From the NCBI GenBank assembly GCA_964440935.1, contig CAYTTY010000001.1:80933-144932 (forward strand): 64,000 nt of DNA. The letters are read 5' to 3'. The notes below the pieces were generated by a model. It did no database searches and was not told where the DNA came from. It was given only the letters and a program-made list of their open reading frames with translations. This DNA is from an uncultured Ignavibacteria bacterium (lineage in GTDB: Bacteria; Zixibacteria; MSB-5A5; WJJR01). Positions 49,860 through 64,000 of the stretch are shown here, one piece after another. A program made the translations under genes and the position numbers. The first letter of the stretch is position 1. Each line of letters begins with the position of its first letter.

Positions 49860-50043
49860 AGCAGGCGATCAGACGAGCGATTCGATCGTCGATGTGGCCC
49901 TGATGGCGCTTTGGGCCATCAGGGCCTGCGTACCTCACACTGGAATCGTATTCGGCCGTCATCCGCGATCAGTCATTGCGCACAGGACAAATGACGATAA
50001 CTTGGGTGGTACGATGTGGAGGCGTAGAACGTACAAAAGAGAC

Positions 50044-51975
50044 ATGACACGGCGTGGGGAATACAGGCTATCGGTATTCTGTGTGGTACTCGCACTCATG
50101 TTGGCTACGACTGTGGGTGCCCAGTCAGACCCACAGAGGCATGGTCCGATCTCGCCGCCCGCCATCGAAGTGGTGTATCCTAAGAAGGGGCAGCGGATCG
50201 GGCCGGTCGATTCCACGTTTGTGATCGGTTCAGTTACGCCGGGGGCATCTTTACGCATCAATGGCCATCTTATCGATGTCTACCGTACCGGTGGGTTTTT
50301 GGCCTGGCTGCCCGTCGAGAAGGGCAAGTTCACCTTCCGCCTGCGTGCGACCGATGGATTCCATTTCGATTCGCTCGACCTGCCGGTCACCATCGCCGAC
50401 CCGCGACCAATTCCGCCCGATAGCGGGCTGATCATCCGCAACGTGCGCCCGATGTGGAACCGGACGATTCGCGCCGGCGATGAAATCGAGATTCGGTTTG
50501 ATGGGACCGTCGGATGTGACGCCCGGTATTGGATTATCGGAGATGTCGATTCACTTGGGCCGTTTCCCATGGCTGAGCAGCATTATGAGCGCTATTCCGA
50601 TTTCCACACATATCGCAAGGACGCATTGCTCGAAGACGGTCCCCGGTACGATCAGGCGCCGTCCGGAGGCCGCTATACCGGTGTCTGGAGAGTCCCCGAT
50701 ATCGAGGGCGCCGATTCGCTGACGGTTCGAGTTGAGCTGACCGGGCTCTCTCAGAAATGGCTGGAGTCGCGACGGCGTCACTACAAGACACACTACGGGC
50801 CACCGATACCGATCGACACGACAGTCCGCACGATTCGTGAGACCGCAACCGGCAGATTGCGTCCAGTTGATGATCTCCCGCCGCGGGTGGTTGAATTCAC
50901 TGACAGTGTGCAGACGCTGCGCATGGGTCCAAGACTGGGGTACATCACGATCTTTCAGCCTTACGGTGTGCGCACCCGTTGGTGGGGAGAGGCGGGACCG
51001 TGGACCATCTTACAGTTGGCGCCGGGACACATCGCCTGGCTTGAAAAAGATAAGACGAGGCTCCTGCCGGAGGGCACGCCGGTTCCGGAAACATTTATTG
51101 CGCGGATGTCCACCAAAGTCAGCGGTGACGATGTGCAATTCCGCGTGGGAACGTCGGAGCGGATTCCATTCAAGATAACCGTCGATGACGATCTGCATCA
51201 TGTGCGCGTGATCCTGTTCGGCGCCACGTCGAACACCGACTGGATCGAGCACGATCCCGATGATGACCTGATCAAGAACATCACCTGGTCGCAAATGCAA
51301 CCCGGTGTGTATGTGATCAACTTACGCCTGGCGCAACAGGTGTGGGGTTACGATGCCCATTACGATAACAAACAGTTTGTGCTGGAATTCAAACGGCCAC
51401 CGTATGTCAGCGATGATCTCGAAGGACTCAAGGTCGCGGTCGATGCCGGGCATTCACGCGATCCCGGCGCCATTGGGCCGACCGGCCTGATGGAAAAGGA
51501 CGCGAATCTCAAGATCGCCTGGAAAGTACACGCCGAACTGAAAGAGCGCGGTGCTGATGTCGTCATGACGCGTCTCGGCGATGAACATGTCGCGCTCTAT
51601 GACCGCCCGTCGCTGTCGGTCGCCGAGGATGTCGACCTGTTCGTGTCGGTGCACAACAATGCCGTTCCCGACGGTATCAATCCGTACTACCGCAACGGCA
51701 CGTCAACGTACTACTACCACACGTTCTCACGCGATTTCGCGCGGCACATGCACCATCGTGTCCTCGATGCCACTGAACTCAACGATTACGGTCTCACCCA
51801 CGGCAACTTCGCCGTGATCCGTCCCACGCATTATCCCTCCGTCCTCGTTGAATGTGCGTTCATCATTCTCCCCGAACAGGAGGAGATGCTGTTGGACGAC
51901 GATTTCATTGAGCGCACGGCCAAGGGGATTGTGAAAGGTATTGAGGATTTCGTGGAGGCGCGGTTGAAGCGGTAA
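50044..51975 (+). CDS. multidomain N-acetylmuramoyl-L-alanine amidase (C-terminal Amidase_3/AmiC-type domain, ~450 aa N-terminal region of unknown function)
   Basis: Start chosen at ATG 50044 (MTRRGEYRLSVFCVVLALMLATTVGA signal peptide); the track ORF begins 49894. The C-terminal VAVDAGHSRDPGA...EHVAL...SVHNNA...ECAFI motifs are the Zn-binding residues of Amidase_3. Confidence 0.8.
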   Translation: MTRRGEYRLSVFCVVLALMLATTVGAQSDPQRHGPISPPAIEVVYPKKGQRIGPVDSTFVIGSVTPGASLRINGHLIDVYRTGGFLAWLPVEKGKFTFRLRATDGFHFDSLDLPVTIADPRPIPPDSGLIIRNVRPMWNRTIRAGDEIEIRFDGTVGCDARYWIIGDVDSLGPFPMAEQHYERYSDFHTYRKDALLEDGPRYDQAPSGGRYTGVWRVPDIEGADSLTVRVELTGLSQKWLESRRRHYKTHYGPPIPIDTTVRTIRETATGRLRPVDDLPPRVVEFTDSVQTLRMGPRLGYITIFQPYGVRTRWWGEAGPWTILQLAPGHIAWLEKDKTRLLPEGTPVPETFIARMSTKVSGDDVQFRVGTSERIPFKITVDDDLHHVRVILFGATSNTDWIEHDPDDDLIKNITWSQMQPGVYVINLRLAQQVWGYDAHYDNKQFVLEFKRPPYVSDDLEGLKVAVDAGHSRDPGAIGPTGLMEKDANLKIAWKVHAELKERGADVVMTRLGDEHVALYDRPSLSVAEDVDLFVSVHNNAVPDGINPYYRNGTSTYYYHTFSRDFARHMHHRVLDATELNDYGLTHGNFAVIRPTHYPSVLVECAFIILPEQEEMLLDDDFIERTAKGIVKGIEDFVEARLKR

Positions 51976-52155
51976 TGTTTACTGAAGTCGATGTGGTATG
52001 TTGACACTGACTCGACAACCCATTTAATTCACACTGGCCAAGGTCATTGCACATACGTCAGGGCACCCGGCCGGGAGTACACAGCGGTGCTCCCCGGCGC
52101 TGGGGCGTGTTGACAACGTCTTATAGCAATTGTCATAAATCCTTTCCGTTTGGAT

Positions 52156-52347
52156 CAGGGTGCCAGGGGCCTTGAGGGGTGTGTTGCAAAACCCCCGAGA
52201 ATCACAGCCTTCGGGAGGGCGAGCCTCCCGGCGAGCCGCAACGGCATGTTCCACACGGCGGCTCGGCGGGAGCCTCGCCCTCCCCAGTCTGAGGTGATGA
52301 TAGTCAGCAGGCTTCTCAACACGCCCCTTGAGGCCCGTGGCACCCTG
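52156..52347. repeat. long nested inverted repeat (31-bp outer stem enclosing a 27-bp inner stem)
   Basis: Outer arms CAGGGTGCCAGGGGCCTTGAGGGGTGTGTTG (52156-52186) and CAACACGCCCCTTGAGGCCCGTGGCACCCTG (52318-52347) pair at 30/31 allowing G-U. Inner arms 52213-52239 and 52258-52285 (GGGAGGGCGAGCCTCCCGGCGAGCCGC / GCGGCTCGGCGGGAGCCTCGCCCTCCCC) pair at 25/27. Each inner arm is itself palindromic (GGGAGG-GCGA-CCTCCC). Confidence 0.7.
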
Positions 52348-52452
52348 ATGTCATCACGATGCACACGGTGCCTCGCTTCCCCTCAATCGGAAATCTATTC
52401 TGACAACCGCTCTAGGATGTGATCATATCGGGCGTTGTGAAGACGATCATCT

Positions 52453-52523
52453 GTAGGGGCGTACTGAGTACGCCCTCTCCCCGTATCGGATACGCGCCGA
52501 GGGCGTATTCAATACGCCCCTAC
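52453..52523. repeat. twin perfect palindromes GGGCGTAYT-N-ARTACGCCC (candidate operator pair or cruciform)
   Basis: GGGCGTACTGAGTACGCCC at 52457-52475 and GGGCGTATTCAATACGCCC at 52501-52519, separated by a third palindrome CGTATCGGATACG (52482-52494). The outer 25-nt arms are also mutually complementary. Confidence 0.65.
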
Positions 52524-52663
52524 GAGAGTACACGATCTTCAATGACACACGTTTTGCAACACGTCCCTCTGCCGTGGGATGCGCCGGTATTCACACATGG
52601 GTTATATTATTCACGTCATATTTAAAGCAATTGTCAGAATAACGTTCTGATTAAATTGAGAAG

Positions 52664-52892
52664 TGTTGTCATTCTCGCGAAAGCGGGAATCCATTTTCCG
52701 CGCGTGGCTGGGCTCAAAATGGCTCCCAGCTTTCGCGGGGATGACAGCGAGGGTCCCTGACGGCCCAATGGATTGCCGTTTGATTTCTATACTCTGTCAT
52801 CCCCGTCGGCCGTGGCGGACCGAGACAGTGTCGTAATTGCTTGTGTACGAAGACAATGGATTCCCGCTTTCGCGGGAATGACAGCGAAGGTT
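52664..52892. mobile_element. MITE-like unit bounded by inverted copies of a dRS3-type palindromic repeat (ATTCCCGC-TTTC-GCGGGAAT + GACAGCGA)
   Basis: Copy 1 is on the minus strand at 52668-52693 (GTCATTCTCGCGAAAGCGGGAATCCA). Copy 2 is degenerate, on the plus strand at 52721-52752. Copy 3 is perfect, on the plus strand at 52857-52890 (TGGATTCCCGCTTTCGCGGGAATGACAGCGAAGG). Copies 1 and 3 form ~27-nt terminal inverted repeats around ~165 bp. Confidence 0.5.
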
Positions 52893-53269
52893 ACTTGGCA
52901 ATCGGAAATCTATTCTGACAACCGCTCTATTATAGTTATAGGACGACTGAGCCGTAGGTCAGGGGCACAGCGCCCGCAACGTCCGTTGCGTTCACGACTG
53001 CGTGAGCGTGCCGGGCTCCTGACAATCGGAGAACAGGGGAAGACCAGAGCGATTGTCAACACCGTCTTTCGATTGACCGAGCGATGTAGCACGGGCGCCT
53101 CGCCCGTGCGGCATGGCCCGCTCGACCATGCTCACGGCAAGCGGGACGGCCATGCTACGGTCTCGTGAATCGGAAAGTTCTTCTGACAATCGCTATAATC
53201 CCTGGCGTGTCAGGCGCGTGATTGGGATACCAGCGGCTTTACGACAATCGTTTCAATGGTGCACAAACT

Positions 53270-54094
53270 CTAGCCTTTCACCGCCCCCGCGGTAATCCCC
53301 GCAATAATCTGTCTTTGGAAGAAGAGGAACACGATCAGCACTGGAACCGTGGCCATAGTAGACGCAGCGAACAAGTGCGGAAGATCGACCCCCTGATAGC
53401 CCCGAAACATGGCCAAGGCAACGGGCAGTGTGCGCGCCTTTTCATTGGTGAGAATGAACGGGAAGAGAAACGAGTTCCACGTCAACCAGAACACCTGAAC
53501 CGCCAGCACCGCCAGTGTCGGTTTGCAGATAGGCATGACAATGCGGTACACGATCCGCCACGGTCCTGCACCGTCGACACGCGCCGCCTCCTCGACTTCA
53601 ATCGGCACCGATGACACCGCGCTACGCACCAAGAGTACACCGAGCGGCATCACGATGACGGGCAGGATGATCGCTGCAAGGGTGTCGTAAAGGCCGAGTT
53701 GATGGATCAGAATGAACATCGGTACAATCAACACATACTGCGGTACCATCAAAACGATCGCCGACGACGCAAACAAAACTCGTCGTCCGGGAAATCGACG
53801 CCGCGCTAAAGCATATCCCACCGGAAAACACAGCAACAGATTGCCAATCGTTACAATGATCGCAACGACGGCAGAATTGAACAGGTAAAAGCCAAATGGC
53901 ATCGACCCAAACAGATCGACGTAGTTGCCCCACCGTGGCGCATTATCCAACGGGTTGAACCAGCGCGCATCCCAGTGTGGCGATACCGAACCAACCACCA
54001 TCCAGATAAACGGGAGCAGCATCCCGGCTAGGACAATCAGCAGAACAACGGAGAGAGTCTTCTCGCCAGTGGTACGGGGACGATCGTGCCTCAT
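53270..54094 (-). CDS. carbohydrate ABC transporter permease (MalG/UgpE-type)
   Basis: Six transmembrane helices and an EAA loop (EAARVDGAGPWRIVYRIVMP); 274 aa. Confidence 0.85.
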   Translation of the reverse strand: MRHDRPRTTGEKTLSVVLLIVLAGMLLPFIWMVVGSVSPHWDARWFNPLDNAPRWGNYVDLFGSMPFGFYLFNSAVVAIIVTIGNLLLCFPVGYALARRRFPGRRVLFASSAIVLMVPQYVLIVPMFILIHQLGLYDTLAAIILPVIVMPLGVLLVRSAVSSVPIEVEEAARVDGAGPWRIVYRIVMPICKPTLAVLAVQVFWLTWNSFLFPFILTNEKARTLPVALAMFRGYQGVDLPHLFAASTMATVPVLIVFLFFQRQIIAGITAGAVKG

Positions 54095-54987
54095 TCTTCC
54101 GCACCCCGTCCAAATGACAACAACCGAAACTGAACGAGCGAAATCAGGGCGATGACAATAAACAACAAATAGGCCGCGGCCGATGCGTATCCCATGTCAA
54201 AACGCTCGAATCCCGACGTGTAAACATGATATACGACAGTCGTCGTCGACCCGACCGGCCCGCCCTGTGTCATTACGAAGATCTCGGTGAAGATCTGGAA
54301 ACTCTTGATCAGGTTGATCACGACCGCGTAGAGCAACATCGGCCGCAGGTACGGCCACGTGATCGCCCAGAACCGCTGCCAGGCATTGGCGCCGTGGGTC
54401 AACGCATCATCGATCAAATCCTGTGGAATGGTCTGCAACCCCGCCAGAAACAAAAGCGCGTAGTAGCCGATCGACACCCACACGTCCATGACCATCACCG
54501 CCAGCAGCGCGGTTGATTCCGAGAGCAGAAACCCCTGCTCCGGGACCGGAATGCCGATCATTTGCGCCAGGCGATACAGATATCCATTTTGGCCGTACAA
54601 CTGGAGAAATACCAGTGCGACGACCACTGTCGCCGTTAGTGTCGGTGCGAAAAAGCCGGCACGGAACAACGCCCGTCCCCAGATACGGCGGTTCAGCGCT
54701 AATGCAACGACGATGGCAATCGCGGTTGTAACCGGAACCGTTCCCGCCGCAAAGAATACGGTGTGCCCGAGTGCACTCCAGAATTCACTGTTGTTGAGCA
54801 CGGCTGCGAAGTTTGCCAGTCCGACCCACGTCCACTCACCGGAGAACACATCGCGCCGTGCAAAGGCGAGGGCCAAAGCATAGAGAAGAGGATACAGCCA
54901 GAAGACGCCGAGCACAATCGTCCATGGCAATGACAACACGACGCCCGACCAGTCGCGCCGGGTGTCGTGGGAGTCAGGTATGGACAT
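54091..54987 (-). CDS. carbohydrate ABC transporter permease (MalF/UgpA-type)
   Basis: EAA-like loop IDDALTHGANAWQRFWAITWPYLRP; six transmembrane helices. The stop overlaps the downstream permease start (ATGA). Confidence 0.85.
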   Translation of the reverse strand: MSIPDSHDTRRDWSGVVLSLPWTIVLGVFWLYPLLYALALAFARRDVFSGEWTWVGLANFAAVLNNSEFWSALGHTVFFAAGTVPVTTAIAIVVALALNRRIWGRALFRAGFFAPTLTATVVVALVFLQLYGQNGYLYRLAQMIGIPVPEQGFLLSESTALLAVMVMDVWVSIGYYALLFLAGLQTIPQDLIDDALTHGANAWQRFWAITWPYLRPMLLYAVVINLIKSFQIFTEIFVMTQGGPVGSTTTVVYHVYTSGFERFDMGYASAAAYLLFIVIALISLVQFRLLSFGRGAEE

Positions 54988-55010
54988 ATCCGTCGTTAGC
55001 GAAGAAGTTG

Positions 55011-56300
55011 CTACTTCTCCAAGATGTCATTAATGCGGTCGCAGGTTTCGGCCATGGCTGAGGGAGGATCCAACTTTTCGTACAAGGCCTGCTCAATACC
55101 CCATTCGAGTTCCTTTTCAATGTCAACCCAGTCGGGGTGCACCGGTGGTGATTGCGCGCTCAGCATCTGCCGCATAAACACGCGACGCACCGGATGCTCA
55201 TAGAAGTAGGGATTGTTTCCGGTCTCGATATGGACCGGAGTGGCACACCCGGTGGCGATACACAGGTTGAAAACGTGTTTCGGTTTGAGCAGATGACGCG
55301 CCAGCTTGATCGCGCCCAGCGGTTCTCGTGCGGCCCGTGGAATCGCCAGATACTCGCCACCGGCAAAGGAGACCGAGCCACCGTGGTCGACACTCGGCTG
55401 CGGGAGCATATGCACCGAGTAGCGAAAGTCGGCAATGTCGGCTTCATCGATCCGCCGATACAGCCAATCCCCGCTCAGATGGAAGAGCAGCTCGCCAGAC
55501 ATGAACATATTGTCCAGGACCGCTTGTTTTTCAACGATACCGAATTGCTTCAGATCGACAAAGAACTCCAGTGCTTCAATGGCCTCGGGCATCACCAGAG
55601 CGCACTGATCGCCGAGGAGGCTGTCGGGTTCGAGGATGTCCGCCTCATTCGACCACAGATAGGGGAGAAAGGCCTTGTAGAGCCGATGCCGTTCGGCCGC
55701 GTTGATGCCGTAGCCGTAAAACTGCGGTTTATGACGGTTGGCAAAACGCGACCACAGTTTCAATTCACCCCATGTGACTGGTGGACGGTTTGGCCGGAGG
55801 CCCACGACCTCCGCGATCACATCATTCTGGTATAGAACACGTGTGGAGAGATACCACGGTAACGCCCAACAGCTCCCTCGGTAGATGCTTGGTGGCCAGC
55901 CGATGTATTCGGGTTGCAGGCGGGCGTACTCTGACGACAGATCGGTCAGTGCACCCGGTGCTGCGAACTCGGCGATCCAATCCGATCCCACCTCGAGCAA
56001 GTCGGGTGCCTCATTGCCGGCAAACGCGGCCACGATCTTCTGATGTCCGTCGTTCCACGTCAGGTCGGTGATCTCGACTTCGTATTCGGGATTTTCGCTC
56101 TCGAATTCCTCGACCGCCTTGATGATGACGTCTTTGACCTTCGGATCGGTCCAGAACTGCCAGAAGCGAACGATCGTCCGTCCGTCTGAGGTTCGCTGAT
56201 TGTCGCCACTGCCACACCCGCCAAAGACAAGCACGACCGCTGCCAAGCAGAGGACAGTCAGACGACAGACGATTGCTGTGTGTGATTTGGTCATATCCAT
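55011..56300 (-). CDS. ABC transporter extracellular solute-binding protein (family 1, sugar-type) lipoprotein
   Basis: Signal peptide with lipobox (LVFGGCGS). ~430 aa, typical of MalE/UgpB-like solute-binding proteins. First gene of the SBP-permease-permease operon. Confidence 0.8.
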   Translation of the reverse strand: MDMTKSHTAIVCRLTVLCLAAVVLVFGGCGSGDNQRTSDGRTIVRFWQFWTDPKVKDVIIKAVEEFESENPEYEVEITDLTWNDGHQKIVAAFAGNEAPDLLEVGSDWIAEFAAPGALTDLSSEYARLQPEYIGWPPSIYRGSCWALPWYLSTRVLYQNDVIAEVVGLRPNRPPVTWGELKLWSRFANRHKPQFYGYGINAAERHRLYKAFLPYLWSNEADILEPDSLLGDQCALVMPEAIEALEFFVDLKQFGIVEKQAVLDNMFMSGELLFHLSGDWLYRRIDEADIADFRYSVHMLPQPSVDHGGSVSFAGGEYLAIPRAAREPLGAIKLARHLLKPKHVFNLCIATGCATPVHIETGNNPYFYEHPVRRVFMRQMLSAQSPPVHPDWVDIEKELEWGIEQALYEKLDPPSAMAETCDRINDILEK

Positions 56301-56309
56301 AACGCTAAA

Positions 56310-56345
56310 CAGCCCGCCTTTGGGCGGGCTGTCAAGTAACTAACG
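56310..56345 (-). terminator. hairpin between the LTXXQ gene and the ABC operon (possible terminator/attenuator)
   Basis: CAGCCCGCC-TTTG-GGCGGGCTG perfect 9-bp stem, followed on the minus strand by TTTAGCGTT. Confidence 0.4.
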
Positions 56346-56481
56346 ATGTGCAGATCAAAGTAGAGGGCGGTTTGGAGAATCATAGGTGATGGTGAGTGTA
56401 TGCATTCCTTTCGTTTTCATATCCGCGTCAGGACCATCCGCTACTACTTGCGTCCCAAACACACGGTCCGCAAACCCCAGG

Positions 56482-57567
56482 TTAGTGGGGTCCGCGGCGT
56501 CCGTGTGGACCAGACGGAAGGAGGTCCGTCATTGCCTCGAAAACAGCCTGTTGCTCGTCGTTTAGAATGGCTACGATTGCGTCGTGCGTGTCCTCACGAA
56601 TCTGCTCGACCTGTTCACGCCTGGCCTCACGATCGGGACGTTGATCGCCGATGCCGTCGTGCAGGTCCTGCATGTGGTCATGTGTCGTCGCCAGAATGGT
56701 CTCAAGCTGTGAGACCTGTGCATTGCTGAGATCCAGAGCTGCAGTCAAGAGTTCCACGCGGGCGTCGTGGCGCTCGATCATACCGTCCTGCATGTGTTCC
56801 CGACGTTCCTCGCGCCGCTCCTGACGATTGGCTTCGAGCTGCTGGAGTTGGTTGGGTGTGAGGATGGCTTCAACGCTTTCGCGCATCTGCTCGCGAAGAG
56901 CGACCGCTTCCTCGGACCGTCCGAAGCCGCGTTCACCGCCATATTGCTCGCGCAGTGCCTGCATGGCCTCGCGGTGCTCTTCGCGCAGTTCGGCTAACTG
57001 TGTTCGCTGCGCTTCAGTCGGATCCAGCTCGGCAAACATCTCTTGGCCGGACCCACGATGTCCTCGGAACCCGCGTCCGCCACGACGCCCATCGGTGCGG
57101 TCGGTCCACTGTTCCCGCGCCTGCATCCGCATGGTTTCATGCTGATCTTTGATGACTTCAAGCAACGCGACCATCTGATCGGCGTCGAGGATTTCGGCGC
57201 TCTCTTTGAGCAACGTATGGAGCGGACGGTCACCGGCGGGGCGTCCGCGAAAACCACGTTCGCCATCTTCACGCGCCTGTTGACGCTTCGCCCGGCGGCT
57301 GTCGACCGCGCGGTTGTAACGATCCAGCGCCGATTGCATCAGATTTTCCTGATCACTTTTCAGGCTGACTTTGGCCTGGACGGCGCTCAGCGTAATCGGT
57401 TCGATGAACGTGCCGTCATCGGTCGAGGCCGTCAGGTTCGACCCTTGTGTGCTGGTATCGCCCGACTGGCATCCGACCAGTCCGAATGCGAAGAGGGCGA
57501 CGCCGAGGATCAGGATACTGCCGATCATTTGCGTGCGGCGTTTCGGTGTCATTGTTGGTGTCTTCAT
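56482..57567 (-). CDS. periplasmic LTXXQ-motif protein (Spy/CpxP/ZraP family-like), lipoprotein
   Basis: Start at ATG 57567 (rc) with an AGGAGG Shine-Dalgarno; the track begins 57681. Lipobox LVGC. Repeated LxxxQ-type helices (LDADQMVALL, LDPTEAQRTQLAEL, LTPNQLQQL). Highly charged, low-complexity and helical. Confidence 0.65.
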   Translation of the reverse strand: MKTPTMTPKRRTQMIGSILILGVALFAFGLVGCQSGDTSTQGSNLTASTDDGTFIEPITLSAVQAKVSLKSDQENLMQSALDRYNRAVDSRRAKRQQAREDGERGFRGRPAGDRPLHTLLKESAEILDADQMVALLEVIKDQHETMRMQAREQWTDRTDGRRGGRGFRGHRGSGQEMFAELDPTEAQRTQLAELREEHREAMQALREQYGGERGFGRSEEAVALREQMRESVEAILTPNQLQQLEANRQERREERREHMQDGMIERHDARVELLTAALDLSNAQVSQLETILATTHDHMQDLHDGIGDQRPDREARREQVEQIREDTHDAIVAILNDEQQAVFEAMTDLLPSGPHGRRGPH

Positions 57568-57632
57568 CGTGTAGTCCTCCTGAAGCTGATTGCTATAGCT
57601 CGTTATCGTGTATTCCCTGCCTGAATTCTCGA

Positions 57633-58454
57633 CTAGTTCAGTTCGGACATCGGCTCGACGGCGAGTTCGACTTTCGTCCATTGGTTTAGCGGCTCGGGCC
57701 GTTCGGGACGATTGCGGCCGCGTCGGCCAAAGCCACCGGCGCCACCGAATCGACCGTCTCGTCCACGCATGCCTTCGCGTGTCTTCACCAGTGGCTCACG
57801 ATCAAATTCGGGTTTAGGCGTCTCGAAGCCGATTCCGATGTCGCCGCCCGGATTCGTTCCAATTGCGTAGAGATGTTCTTCACTGTAGAAGAGTGGCACC
57901 TTCAACTCGTAGACTAGCCGCCTGTTTTCAATCATCAGTTGCGCGCTGATGTCCGCCCGGGCGCCGGTCTGGATGCGCTGAATGACCTCGCCTTGTTCAT
58001 CCAGCAACTCCATTCCCGGCGCCAGCGAGTCGGACAACACAGTGAGATCGTTACGATCCGGACGTTTTCCCGTGAATCGTCGAAGTGATCCGCTACCCAC
58101 AAGTCCCACCGGATAGCGGACACCAAATTCCTTATCATCGCCGCCGTCGGGATCGAACCATATGATCAGGCCAAGCCCCATGATCTGACGAATGGCCGTC
58201 TCATCAGTGGTGGCCAAATGAACATAGATGAATTCGTCATCATTCCGAACCGCGATCCCGACTTTGGTGTCATCGAGGTGGATTTTCGCCTGAGCCCACT
58301 CCGATTCCGCGCCGTCAATAACGACGGAGTCGGAATTCCACTGACTGGTGATTTCCGGTTCGCCGCTGTGTGCCGTCGTCACGTAGAGGCCGCAGACAAG
58401 AATCGCGACCAGGCCGCTGGTGATTCGCTTGGTTGTGTCAGTCCGTGCCAACAT
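57633..58454 (-). CDS. hypothetical secreted protein
   Basis: Signal peptide (VAILVCGLYVTTAHS). Gly/Arg-rich C-terminal tail. Between the HK and the LTXXQ protein on the same strand. Confidence 0.45.
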   Translation of the reverse strand: MLARTDTTKRITSGLVAILVCGLYVTTAHSGEPEITSQWNSDSVVIDGAESEWAQAKIHLDDTKVGIAVRNDDEFIYVHLATTDETAIRQIMGLGLIIWFDPDGGDDKEFGVRYPVGLVGSGSLRRFTGKRPDRNDLTVLSDSLAPGMELLDEQGEVIQRIQTGARADISAQLMIENRRLVYELKVPLFYSEEHLYAIGTNPGGDIGIGFETPKPEFDREPLVKTREGMRGRDGRFGGAGGFGRRGRNRPERPEPLNQWTKVELAVEPMSELN

Positions 58455-58595
58455 TTCCTGCCCTCCATGAGCGCTCGGTCTCCGTCGCTCTCACAAGGGA
58501 ATACCTTTGAGATGTGGTAGAAATGTTGCAGAGGGATGGAATTGTGCGATTGGGCTCAGAATTCGATGTGGATGACCCTGCGTCGCCCGGACCTC

Positions 58596-58632
58596 CCGCC
58601 CGCGCGGCATGGCCGAGACGGCCATGCTACGA
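58596..58632. repeat. REP-like palindromic element (second copy of the one at 53100-53160)
   Basis: GCGGCATGGCC-GAGAC-GGCCATGCTACG with a perfect 8-bp stem. 53108-53157 carries the same termini (GCGGCATGGCC...GACGGCCATGCTACG) with an internal insertion. Confidence 0.5.
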
Positions 58633-58642
58633 GAGTGGGCTC

Positions 58643-60106
58643 TTACCGTGGCAACTCATTGCCCTTAGGCAGTTCGACAGAAATCACCGCCCCCGACGGT
58701 TCCTGATTCGCGGCCCAAACAGATCCACCATGCTGCTGCGCGATCTCTTTGACGATGGCCAGTCCCAGTCCTGTCCCTGAATCGGAACGCGCTGGATCGG
58801 CACGGTAAAACCGGTCGAAAATGTGGGGAAGGTCATCATCACGAAAACCCGAACCGTCGTCGGCTACGGTCAGCCTGTATCGGTCCGGTGAAGGCACATC
58901 AATGCTGACCGTGACCGATCCACCAGATGGCACATATCGCAGCGAATTGATCAGCAGATTTTCGAACATCTGTTCGAGCCGACGACCGTCGGCGATGATC
59001 CAGGCTTCCTGATCCGGTGTCGGACCATCGATCTGCAATCCGGCTTTCTCAAAGCGTGGACGGTAGCGGCCGATCGTGTTGCGACATAACGCCGCCCAAT
59101 CAAGCGATTCGGGAGAGAGGGCCGCCGACCCCGACTCCAACCGAGCCAACTCGAGCAGATCATTCACGAGCAAGCCCATCCGTTGCGATTCATCGAGGAT
59201 ATTCGACAGATACTGACGTCGTTCATCATCCGAAATCGGTATGTCGGGCCGCTGTAAGGTCTCCGCATATCCACGAATCGATGTCAGCGGTGTCGAAAGT
59301 TCGTGCGAGATATCGGCCAGCAGTTGGCGACGTTGCTTATCCATCCGTTCGACGCGCTCCCGGGATTGCGCCAGGCTCTCTGTCATACGATTGAGCTGCT
59401 CACCGACACGGTCGATTTCGTCTCGTCCGGAGTGTTCCACCCGGACACTCAAGTCACCCTCAGCCACCTGCAAGGCCAGATGTTCGAGCGCGCGAATCCG
59501 TCGGAGCAGATAACGGAAGATGATGAATCCACCGGCGCCGGCGAGGACGATCGCCACCGGCAGGATAAACAGGATGTGCCACGGCGAGTGCTGGCGGCGT
59601 AAAGAGATGCCGCGTCGGGGTGACATGGCCACCACTTCACCAATGACGCCTTCAGTGGTCTCAACAGGCATGACCGCTGTCATCAGCCGCTTGTCGGATT
59701 GGATTTCCCAGAGACGGCGTCCCCAGCGCCGCCCGCGCGTTGAGTCCTGGCCCTCGTCGGGTGGTGCGAGACCGGGCGGCGGGTTCATCCGGTTAAACGG
59801 ACCGGGACGACTCGCGACAATCTCGCCATCAGTGCCGCGAAAGGTCAGACGGGCACCCGATTCGATTGACGAATACTCGCGTAAGATCTCGCGGATCTGG
59901 CCCTGCGTAGGATTGCCCGGAAGCGAAGCCAGTTCGCGAGCGGCATCGCGCGCCAAGTCCTCCAGCGTGCTTTGCTGCAAACGATCGGCGATCGGCCGTA
60001 GAATGGTGACAGCGAAGACACCCTGGACAATGGTGGCGACGACCAGAACCAGCAGGAAGACGCCGGCGAAGGTCCACAGCAAGCTGCGGGGACGCAATCG
60101 CTTCAT
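58643..60106 (-). CDS. sensor histidine kinase (TM-periplasmic-TM-HAMP-HisKA-HATPase)
   Basis: H-box ADISHELSTPLTSIRG; N box LINSLRY; G boxes DDGSGF and GTGLGLAIV; 487 aa. Confidence 0.85.
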   Translation of the reverse strand: MKRLRPRSLLWTFAGVFLLVLVVATIVQGVFAVTILRPIADRLQQSTLEDLARDAARELASLPGNPTQGQIREILREYSSIESGARLTFRGTDGEIVASRPGPFNRMNPPPGLAPPDEGQDSTRGRRWGRRLWEIQSDKRLMTAVMPVETTEGVIGEVVAMSPRRGISLRRQHSPWHILFILPVAIVLAGAGGFIIFRYLLRRIRALEHLALQVAEGDLSVRVEHSGRDEIDRVGEQLNRMTESLAQSRERVERMDKQRRQLLADISHELSTPLTSIRGYAETLQRPDIPISDDERRQYLSNILDESQRMGLLVNDLLELARLESGSAALSPESLDWAALCRNTIGRYRPRFEKAGLQIDGPTPDQEAWIIADGRRLEQMFENLLINSLRYVPSGGSVTVSIDVPSPDRYRLTVADDGSGFRDDDLPHIFDRFYRADPARSDSGTGLGLAIVKEIAQQHGGSVWAANQEPSGAVISVELPKGNELPR

Positions 60107-60789
60107 TCACTTGCCTCCGTGAATCGATAACCGGCGCCCCAGACCGTTTGAATGTAGCGCGGATGGGACGCATCGGTCTCGAGATGTTTTCGCAGGCGGC
60201 TGATCAGACTATCGATGGAACGTGGATCGACCACCCGATCTTCACCCCAGACCTGTTCCATCAGGGCCTCCCGCGAGTACACGCGCCCGGCATGCGACGC
60301 CATGAAGTAGAGCAAGTCGAATTCGAGTGATGTCAGTTCGACCGGCTGTCCATTGCGCATCACGACGCGGCGCGACGGATCGATGGTCAACGGACCGCGG
60401 GTCAGCGGCTCCTTACGTGAGACCGATGTTGTTCGCCTCAGCAGCGCGCGGACACGTGCCACCAGCTCGAGGGTACTGAATGGCTTGGTGAGATAGTCGT
60501 CCGCGCCGATTTCAAATCCAAGTACCTTGTCGCCTTCGCTGGAGCGGGCCGTGAGCATCAGGATGGGGAGATCGCTGTCGCGACGAATCTGTCGGGTGAG
60601 TTCGATCCCGTCCATATGCGGCATCATGACATCCAGCACCAGCAACCGGGGACGCTGCCGTTGCACCTCATGCAAGGCGGTCAATCCATCGTGAACCTGT
60701 CGGCACGAGAACCCGGCTGCTTCGAGGTTCTTAGCCACCAGTTCGGCAATCTTGCGGTCATCTTCGGCAATGAGAATGTCCAGGCTCAT
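60103..60789 (-). CDS. OmpR-family response regulator (receiver + winged-helix DNA-binding domain)
   Basis: ILIAEDD, LLVLDVMMPHMDG and KP receiver motifs. C-terminal winged helix (...YIQTVWGAGYRF). Overlaps the HK by 4 nt. Confidence 0.9.
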   Translation of the reverse strand: MSLDILIAEDDRKIAELVAKNLEAAGFSCRQVHDGLTALHEVQRQRPRLLVLDVMMPHMDGIELTRQIRRDSDLPILMLTARSSEGDKVLGFEIGADDYLTKPFSTLELVARVRALLRRTTSVSRKEPLTRGPLTIDPSRRVVMRNGQPVELTSLEFDLLYFMASHAGRVYSREALMEQVWGEDRVVDPRSIDSLISRLRKHLETDASHPRYIQTVWGAGYRFTEASE

Positions 60790-60884
60790 AACATACGCTC
60801 GCTGGAAATCGGCATCCTGTCAAGCAGATCGAATCGACTCGCGTGATTCACACGTCCCCTGACTCCTCAACGAGGGGTGCCCCA

Positions 60885-60921
60885 CCCTAACCGGAAGCCA
60901 TTACATGGCTTCCGGTTAGGG
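60885..60921. other. perfect 15-bp stem hairpin in the regulator upstream region
   Basis: CCCTAACCGGAAGCC-ATTACAT-GGCTTCCGGTTAGGG. No U-tract on either strand. Preceded by a second small hairpin (CCCCTG...GAGGGG). Confidence 0.5.
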
Positions 60922-61196
60922 TGAGATACGGCCCCGATGGTCCGACCGTGTTTCGGCGGATGCGCGGTCGGATAACATGGAATGGTTACCAAGATCTAAC
61001 CTCTGTTGTAACCTGTTGTGTTAACTTGGCAAAAGCGCATCCGCCCTACGTATAGGGCCCGCTGAGCCTGGATACTGTAACTCGATTCCCCTTCCACAAC
61101 CCAAATCACCCGTTGCGTTTTCCGCCAAATCAACGTACAATGGTCGGTCTTTTTGACCGACGATTCTGACAGAGACAAACCAAGGTGAGATGACCG

Positions 61197-61397
61197 ATGG
61201 CCAAACGTTGCAGCATAACAGGAAAACATCCGGTGGCGGGGAATAATGTCTCCCACGCCAACAATAAGACGAAACGTCGTTTCAATCCCAATCTCGTGTC
61301 CAAGCGCATTTGGAACCCGACGCAGAAGCGCTGGGTGCGTATGCGCATTTCGACCAAGGCTCTGAAGACGCTTGATAAGAAGGGTTGGGTGCGATAA
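61197..61397 (+). CDS. rpmB: 50S ribosomal protein L28
   Basis: MAKRCSITGKHPVAGNNVSHANNKTKRRFNPNL...; 66 aa; canonical L28 sequence. Confidence 0.9.
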   Translation: MAKRCSITGKHPVAGNNVSHANNKTKRRFNPNLVSKRIWNPTQKRWVRMRISTKALKTLDKKGWVR

Positions 61398-61423
61398 CCC
61401 GACCGGCTGGCTTCGATGGAAAT

Positions 61424-61455
61424 GAAAAAGCCCCGCCATTGGCGGGGCTTTTTCT
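61424..61455. terminator. bidirectional Rho-independent terminator (rpmB / cytochrome convergent pair)
   Basis: AAAAAGCCCCGCC-ATT-GGCGGGGCTTTTT: an A-tract, a 9-bp GC stem and a T-tract. Confidence 0.85.
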
Positions 61456-61476
61456 GTTCTACCTGAATGTGTCAGA

Positions 61477-62544
61477 CTACCGGTCGCTCTTCATGGTTTG
61501 AATGTTGGCCAATCCCGCGATGCCCTCCTGGGAATTGACGAAGTCCTGTGTCCGCTCCAGAACCGCCTCGGCGTACGCCGGATTGTGCACACCGTAGCTT
61601 TGATCCTCGAGGAGCATCAAATAGTTCCAGATTGCACCGAGCTCGTCGGCAGAGCGCTGCACCCCCGGTATGATATGATCGTGATCGTCGATCCAGCCAA
61701 GAGCGATCAAATCATCACGCAACGCTTCAAGGTCGTCGGTAAAGGGACCCTGATAGTCGCGTGTGAAGGTTGTTCCGTCCGTTGCCGAGCCGAAATTGTG
61801 GCAGGTGCATCCGGGGATATTCACGCGTTCGGAACCGCGATAGTTGTAAACAATTTTGTAGGTGTGTCCGCCCGCCAGAGCATTCTCCGGAACGCCGGCC
61901 ATGTGGCAGGTGACGCATCCGTTGCTGATCGCATTATTGTGCGCCGCGTCGGATGGATACGCACCCTGGCCGAACTCGTACGCCCCTTGCCCACTGAGAA
62001 TATTGGTCTGTGGACCGTGGTGCGGTCCCCAGTACGGGCTTTGGACAATCTCGCCATCGTTGAAACCGGGGGAGGGATTGCGAACCTGGTGGCACACCGC
62101 GCACTCGTTACTGGTGCCCTTATCGTACGTGCCACCCTGATTCACCAGCACTGCGCCTTCTTGCCGTAAACTGAAGTTTTCGCGGGTGTGTGGCGCGTGA
62201 CAGGTGAAGCAACCGATACGCGACGAGAATTCCACCGGGATGGCCTCGCCGGTGTTCACGTAGTGTTGATGTCCCTCGTTCGTGTGACAGCGTGAACACT
62301 CGGGGGTAATGTCATCGCCACGACGAAGATAGGTGTCGCCGGTGTTGTGTTTCGAGTCTTCAAACTCCGTTTGGAAAGGTGCGAGTAACACCGCCAATTC
62401 ATCATCATACTGATCGGTATGGCAGTTCATGCATGATGCGGTCCCGGCCGGCCCCTGGGGACCCTGATCGCCTTCGCATCCTGTCAATCCGACTGCCAAG
62501 ATGGCCATTGCCAGCATCATCCATCCCAGTGCAATCTTTTTCAT
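61477..62544 (-). CDS. multihaem c-type cytochrome lipoprotein (five canonical CxxCH sites)
   Basis: Lipobox LTGCEG. Haem-binding motifs CMNCH, CSRCH, CFTCH, CAVCH and CVTCH, plus a non-canonical CTCH. 355 aa. Confidence 0.8.
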   Translation of the reverse strand: MKKIALGWMMLAMAILAVGLTGCEGDQGPQGPAGTASCMNCHTDQYDDELAVLLAPFQTEFEDSKHNTGDTYLRRGDDITPECSRCHTNEGHQHYVNTGEAIPVEFSSRIGCFTCHAPHTRENFSLRQEGAVLVNQGGTYDKGTSNECAVCHQVRNPSPGFNDGEIVQSPYWGPHHGPQTNILSGQGAYEFGQGAYPSDAAHNNAISNGCVTCHMAGVPENALAGGHTYKIVYNYRGSERVNIPGCTCHNFGSATDGTTFTRDYQGPFTDDLEALRDDLIALGWIDDHDHIIPGVQRSADELGAIWNYLMLLEDQSYGVHNPAYAEAVLERTQDFVNSQEGIAGLANIQTMKSDR

Positions 62545-62767
62545 CTGTTCCCTCCTATCAACACTCCTTGTCCATTGCTTCCATGATTGCGCATATGTTC
62601 ACAAACTTACTCCACTTTCATCATCATCGGCACGCTTGTCAAGGAAATACACCTTTAATCAGGTCTGGTTTTGCCCGCTTTTGACAACCCTAAGTTGAAA
62701 GGCGCGTTCAAAATAGGCGCATCTTGAACGTGCCGAATAAGTTGTCACTGTAATGTCAGTGAAGCGG

Positions 62768-64000
<1,233 letters not shown>

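Follow-up and report, generated by a model that had tools for sequence, protein, structure and literature searches.

A nested palindrome at a convergent gene junction of a Zixibacteria genome is probably the body of a TA-flanked MITE

What kind of element is the long nested palindrome that lies between two convergent genes in this 64-kb stretch of DNA (64,000 nucleotides, hereafter the window), and does its strong folding point to a dedicated function? The first-pass annotation had described a 190-nt double-nested inverted repeat at 52156-52347. We found it in place and measured its outer and inner arms: the hairpin spans ~196 nt (52154-52349, with no strand assigned). An inverted-repeat search and alignment placed the outer left arm at 52154-52193 (+ strand) and the outer right arm at 52310-52349 (- strand); these arms are 40 nt long and 83% complementary, and each carries a copy of a ~36-nt sequence (GGGTGCCAcGGGCCTnnAGGGGCGTGTTGnAAAAC) that we call module M, inverted on the right. 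Between them lies a central doublet (52213-52284) made of two 27-nt arms (52213-52239 and 52258-52284), which are 93% complementary and separated by an 18-nt loop. Each inner arm is itself a mini-hairpin, as had been noticed before, and both can be read directly from the sequence (GGGAGG-GCGAG-CCTCCC and GGGAG-CCTCGCC-CTCCC). An extra segment of 39 nt on the right side makes the whole structure asymmetric.

The palindrome is an inverted duplication of the 36-nt module around a doublet of small hairpins, so that any single strand, DNA or RNA, folds to a very stable hairpin. Folding of both strands had been proposed as a check, and the RNA fold of 52150-52355 reached -140.0 kcal/mol on the + strand and -140.1 kcal/mol on the - strand, with G-U counts that were also alike. 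Shuffled versions of the same segment folded at a mean of -85 kcal/mol (sd 4.9), which gives z = -11.3, and none of 200 shuffles folded as stably; the earlier remark that the dyad symmetry goes well past that of a terminator is borne out. A search of the 64-kb window for inverted repeats (22 nt or more, within 400 nt) returned eight, and seven of these fall in the gap between the two convergent genes (51976-53269). The hairpin is non-random, far beyond chance, yet it is a member of a cluster and not unique.

The element could be identified from the terminal inverted repeats (TIRs) that sit just outside the hairpin, immediately beyond the interval first described, where they had been overlooked. 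They delimit a MITE-like element of 289 bp (element A, 52124-52412) that holds the hairpin. Its left TIR (TAGCAATTGTCATAAATCCTTTCCGTTTG, 52124-52152, - strand) has two mismatches to the core pattern and its right TIR (CAATCGGAAATCTATTCTGACAACCGCTC) occupies 52384-52412 on the + strand; in the sequence, a TA adjoins the element at its left (52122-52123) and right (52413-52414) ends. Folded as DNA, the whole element with these dinucleotides (52122-52414) forms a single hairpin in which TIR pairs with TIR (z = -9.4). The TIR is ~28 bp long, has the 27-nt consensus AAWCGGAAA-N4-TTMTGACAA-N2-GCT followed by N-TA, and is organized in three blocks (AAWCGGAA, TTMTGACAA and GCT) that are conserved and keep a fixed spacing. 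The window contains six copies of this motif, for a chance expectation of 0.04, and all of them are inside the 1.3-kb gap. They alternate in orientation (52125-52151, -; 52385-52411, +; 52626-52652, -; 52900-52926, +; 53048-53074, -; 53168-53194, +) and form three inverted pairs around three different palindromic bodies, named A, B and C, with a TA directly outside five of the six element ends. Element A is smaller than ~500 bp and has no coding capacity, and the G+C content here is 60%. The ORFs that cross the region gave no Pfam domain, and with no domain in any overlapping ORF a coding reading of it was rejected. A reading of the TIR as an outward promoter was discarded as well, since it fails on hexamer spacing.

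Element B (52625-52927, 303 bp) has ends that belong to this TIR family and is flanked by TA left and right; element C (53047-53195, 149 bp), also of this family, has a degenerate left TIR with four mismatches and TA on the right only. The right ends of A and B (52384-52414 and 52899-52929) are identical at 31 of 31 positions, including those that vary within the family. Given only 74% similarity of the left ends and interiors that are unrelated, these elements look mosaic, as would result from interior exchange or end conversion.

The interior of B consists of three to four copies of a hairpin module of ~30 nt (TGTCATTCCCGC-GAAA-GCGGGAATCCATT, with the core ATTCCCGC-N4-GCGGGAAT), located at 52667-52698 (+), 52716-52746 (-) and 52852-52883 (-). 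We take this hairpin to resemble the dRS3 repeat of Neisseria, ATTCCC-N8-GGGAAT. Modules of the ATTCCCGC type were also seen in other loci retrieved in this study (L006 ~4290, L020 ~3758, L026 ~659 and L031 ~640-690), nearly unchanged in Desulfobacterales, in another deltaproteobacterial MAG and in Zixibacteria MAGs, and in variants from three loci (L003, L008 and L013) the stem is kept by two-sided changes (CCCCGGC/GCCGGGG, CCCCAGC/GCTGGTG). An exact 20-mer of the module is also present in Neisseria gonorrhoeae DNA printed as part of a construct (PMC7593972). Hairpin doublets headed by GTAG (e.g. GTAGGGGCGTACTGAGTACGCCC) were observed at 52453-52523, in the interior of C (~53086-53160), at two places in L031 (798-853 and 432-512) and at L040 4580-4670; they have a REP/REPIN layout, which would give these Zixibacteria genomes palindromic repeats of a second class. 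Finally, in the spacer between B and C (52930-53046) a block that resembles part of a TIR (CTGACAATCGG, ~53020-53030) is accompanied by a GTAG-headed segment, and the spacer may be the remnant of another decayed element.

Element A is itself surrounded by the two parts of a further element, D. The left part (52049-52121, + strand) is a copy of module M, and the right part (52415-52600, no strand assigned) comprises the GTAG-headed doublet at 52453-52523 and an inverted module M copy at 52551-52590; the two arms of A and the two arms of D thus account for the four copies of module M in the window. We read A as having inserted at a TA inside D, which would be an older copy of the A type. D has no recognisable TIR, and neither has the left side of the element at locus L031, which belongs to a congeneric MAG. 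In view of these TIR-less copies, the unit of module M and doublet might also have spread by another route.

The congeneric MAG is 87.8% identical to the window at the nucleotide level, in an alignment that ends exactly at a stop codon, that of the amidase gene on the left of the gap. After this gene it carries a D-like element without TIRs, composed of the arm module and a GTAG-headed hairpin doublet, which resembles the sequence surrounding A in the window; element A is not present in the 208 nt of contig that remain there. Alignment located module M at two other loci of this MAG, and only two to three copies of an A-type interior were seen, in this same genome. One of them, at L031, has the architecture of A (module, perfect central doublet, inverted module, 39-nt spacer and TIR) with a centre unrelated to that of A in sequence, and it is located after a different gene. 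Homologous structures with compensatory changes had been suggested as a test of the palindrome; what we recovered is this one homologue, in which the arm module is kept and the centre is unrelated, and the differences between the arms look like drift. At the same locus (590-713, - strand) we observed two same-orientation TIR copies 97 nt apart, the second of which lacks a partner end and comes after just one ATTCCCGC-type hairpin, indicating that one-ended or truncated copies of the family exist.

This organism belongs to the Zixibacteria, as its amidase shows, and the history of the junction can be followed in its relatives. The left flank is the gene for an N-acetylmuramoyl-L-alanine amidase (49894-51975, +), the last gene of the + strand, and the right flank is an ABC transporter permease gene (53270-54094, -), the first of the - strand: the large ORFs all run on the + strand from 1 to 51975 and all on the - strand from 53270 to 64000. 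The two genes leave a convergent gap of 1,294 bp (51976-53269). The same convergent pair is found in three relatives, where it is separated by 237 bp (80% amino-acid identity) or 180 bp (66%), or overlaps by 26 bp (56%), and neither the TIR nor module M is present at these three junctions. The relative at 80% identity has an identical gene order and no TIR motif in 21.8 kb, and only the gene ends align between its gap and that of the window. The short junctions and the alignment limited to gene ends indicate that ~1 kb was added in the lineage of the window. The elements are therefore present in one lineage and absent from others at an orthologous junction, in a comparison that is not base-precise: no base-precise empty site was recovered from these relatives, since their intergenic DNA does not align. 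GC skew turns from positive to negative at ~52 kb, where gene orientation switches, and a scan of the window for tRNA and tmRNA genes returned none.

We then consider how far the TIR family extends. An exact-pattern scan of one genome per species, in which the counts derive from listed matches and are therefore minimum values, detected the TIR in at least 13 contigs of a Desulfobacterales MAG and at least seven contigs of another deltaproteobacterial MAG. Also among the matches listed were two contigs of a Zixibacteria MAG and single matches in other phyla; two matches in Paenibacillus were set aside, as they look like chance and lie in a conserved stretch common to two species. In the matched loci, inverted TIR pairs bound elements of 147-380 bp whose flanks mostly read TA-N-AGC...GCT-N-TA, and conservation within a genome ends right after GCT-N-TA. 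In one genome, nine copies could be aligned over ~190 bp, with a mean column identity of 72%, and similarity is lost just outside the TA. Elements at these other loci also fold as long hairpins, with similar energy on both strands; strong folding is a property of the whole family and does not indicate a dedicated function. The copies thus combine conserved ends, unrelated flanks and multiple dispersed locations, the pattern by which a MITE is recognised.

A transposase ORF near or between the TIRs was not found in ~200 kb of loci, a survey that included an all-against-all BLASTP for any repeated ORF. BLAST of plasmids with the element and the TIR consensus gave nothing or chance 20-mers, and a scan of viral contigs gave two chance matches only, with no autonomous element. 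A metagenome scan with an A-type pattern, which was too strict, produced a single chance match inside a coding region. Our literature search found no published description of this TIR family, and its part based on sequence strings returned nothing relevant except the Neisseria construct with the dRS3-like 20-mer.

These elements are TIR-bounded, non-coding, dispersed and lineage-specific, and they are self-complementary over their whole length. Inverted TIR pairs, sharp boundaries, dispersed copies and no transposase inside are the signature of a MITE family, and we conclude that the palindrome is very probably the body of a non-coding mobile repeat, a TA-flanked MITE. The hairpin element is, in this sense, an ordinary kind of feature.

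How such an element could move can be proposed from its structure. The three-block layout of the TIR is what the DNA-binding domain of a transposase would read, and a transposase encoded elsewhere would bind both ends, excise the element and insert it at a TA. The mobilising enzyme is likely to be of a TA-duplicating type, from IS630/Tc1-mariner or from the IS427 and ISL2 groups of IS5. The latter groups duplicate 2-4 bp, including TA, and the TIR described here presumably resembles that of Tc1. Mobilisation is thus probably by an IS630/Tc1-like or an IS5-like transposase. By analogy with RUP and IS630-Spn1, and with a TATAG-ended hairpin MITE of Thiomargarita, an IS630/Tc1-type enzyme would be the first candidate, and one from the IS427/ISL2 groups of IS5 the second. 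At the left end, about 19 of 23 cases have an adjoining TA, and at the right end 21 of 23 do. A 2-bp TA, taken by itself, is compatible with a target duplication and with a conserved tip of the repeat alike, and the latter could be the case here. At the junction in the window, A would have landed in the older copy D and B and C beside it, and the space between the two 3' ends would have grown in this way to 1.3 kb. As to the host, a block to read-through, protection of the 3' ends of the convergent transcripts, or a barrier role would be speculation.

Several other explanations had to be weighed. A palindrome of this size could be a fold-back chimera, which is possible in MAG assemblies, and two independent contigs do stop at the edges of the region: two Logan contigs of run SRR7048227 end inside the left TIR of A (L041, window ~52148) and inside the right TIR of C (L001, ~53169), and a contig from another run (L042) breaks off within the arm module, 40 nt beyond the stop codon of the amidase gene. 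However, one Logan contig of SRR7048227 was aligned and matches the window without a difference as far as the left TIR of A, which it enters (neither contig of this run reaches across the hairpin interior, and both may come from the sample of the MAG). What speaks against an artefact is that the left junction recurs in a separate assembly, that the arms are imperfect and that 39 extra nt make the right side asymmetric; moreover, the region is internal to a 213-kb contig and the same architecture recurs in another MAG. We consider the probability of an artefact negligible. Breaks inside TIRs or the arm module are as expected at repeats, which fragment the assemblies of this lineage, and these contig ends may mark further copies. 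The first-pass annotation had also considered a cruciform-forming DNA element, such as a recombination, replication-related or attC-like site. The part of this proposal that stands is a DNA palindrome tied to transposition, that is, to recombination in a broad sense. An integron attC site is, like this palindrome, imperfect, bulged and non-coding, but RYYYAAC/GTTRRRY core sites are absent from 52140-52360, 196 nt exceeds the length of an attC, the repeats alternate in orientation with no cassette array, and the neighbours are amidase and ABC transporter genes, making an attC or attC-like site extremely improbable. A feature of the replication terminus (fork barrier, dif-associated site or cruciform) would be attractive given the position, exactly at the switch of gene orientation and GC skew, and given that a relative keeps the convergent junction and a weak skew change. 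Nevertheless, the window has no dif-like 28-mer (the best candidate has at least 10 mismatches in 28), nothing in the gap is conserved with that relative, the junctions of the relatives measure 0-240 bp and lack these repeats, and the same elements occupy many unrelated loci of other genomes. We regard a terminus feature as highly unlikely.

A structured RNA had been the other early proposal. One that has a function (as an sRNA, or in processing or stability) and is made from a single strand would account for the extreme stability of the fold; the site is downstream of two convergent operons and probably transcribed by read-through, and in the Correia MITE the RNA stem-loops serve as substrates of RNase III (PMC2229807). 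Against it, Rfam gave no match at gathering scores in the whole window, and relaxed settings (E up to 10, in the region) produced only generic miRNA-hairpin noise far below threshold. Both strands fold equally in energy and G-U counts, a scan detected no promoters and only chance levels of terminator-like sites, the sole homologue has a different centre and arm changes without clean compensation, and the element is missing from relatives. The RNA proposal did not hold up, and we deem it very unlikely. A REP/REPIN-type element, in which short palindromes form a doublet that a RAYT (an IS200/IS605-like tyrosine transposase) mobilises, with the TIRs belonging elsewhere, has features in common with the hairpin. 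The arms of the central doublet are themselves hairpins, as in a REPIN; neighbouring palindromes (52453-52523, inside C, L031 798-853 and the tail of L040) consist of a GTAG head and then a hairpin; and units of module M and doublet occur without TIRs, as in D and in the element after the amidase gene of Bin_224. But the mini-hairpins at 52213-52229 and 52268-52284 have no GTAG or GTGG head, and the element is bounded symmetrically by a TIR family that clearly acts as element ends elsewhere. We therefore give the REPIN reading a small chance.

For a TA-flanked MITE, only two aspects are mildly unusual: ends that are almost identical between Zixibacteria and Desulfobacterota-type MAGs, and interiors that are modular. 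A bolder reading of the same observations, which we consider possible but unlikely, takes the ~28-bp end with its three blocks (AAWCGGAAA-N4-TTMTGACAA-N2-GCT-N-TA) as the hallmark of a MITE superfamily not described so far. Zixibacteria and Desulfobacterota-type MAGs, and perhaps a wider range of genomes, would share it with hardly any change, and its palindromic interiors would be exchangeable, one of them being a dRS3-like ATTCCCGC-N4-GCGGGAAT hairpin with compensatory stem changes. Its transposase would be unknown, or selection would favour interiors able to form hairpins, for instance to insulate the ends of convergent genes.

On this identification, the striking structure is accounted for by selfish repetitive DNA rather than by a device for regulation or replication, which saves follow-up effort. 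The same ends in phylogenetically distant uncultured bacteria would imply horizontal spread of one transposase lineage, and the nested insertions suggest rapid turnover of an otherwise compact junction. Since these elements break short-read assemblies exactly at their ends, they are relevant to closing MAGs of Zixibacteria and Desulfobacterales. Their value for mobile-element biology is modest.

Among known systems, the Correia/NEMIS elements of Neisseria are likewise TIR-bounded MITEs with a long stem-loop. Correia elements are flanked by TA and have a 26-bp TIR. They differ in TIR sequence and are restricted to Neisseria, whereas the TIR family described here spans Zixibacteria and Desulfobacterota-type MAGs. 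REPINs are similar in that two inverted small hairpins make a larger one in intergenic DNA at gene 3' ends, but the hairpin studied here has no GTAG head and is bounded by TIRs. The transcribed stem-loops of Correia elements affect neighbouring mRNAs (PMC2229807). RUP, which has been linked to IS630-Spn1 by TIR similarity and TA target sites, shares with our elements a small size, no coding capacity, TIRs, insertion at TA, intergenic location and many copies (PMC2229807); it differs in being 107 bp long with TIRs that match a known IS, compared with 147-380 bp, long nested palindromic interiors and no parent IS found in our case. A MITE of Candidatus Thiomargarita nelsonii has TATAG ends, a long hairpin and dispersed copies, and its authors relate it to IS630 (PMC4853749); our TIR core is absent from the supplementary consensus sequences of that paper, and the comparison does not show common identity. 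Chunjie, a MITE from Geobacter uraniireducens, is 178-235 bp long, exists in numerous copies, both full and partial, and its RNA is predicted to fold at about -98 to -130 kcal/mol (PMC3184786, PMC10969869). Set beside these values (PMC3184786), the fold energy of our hairpin is not exceptional for a bacterial MITE. Chunjie has 21-bp TIRs, 9-bp direct repeats and A+T-rich sequence (PMC3184786), in contrast to TA, ~28 bp and 60% G+C here, and on the basis of those TIRs and direct repeats our element is not Chunjie. Nevertheless, it works like RUP, Correia and Chunjie, and it displays most of the features by which MITEs are recognised.
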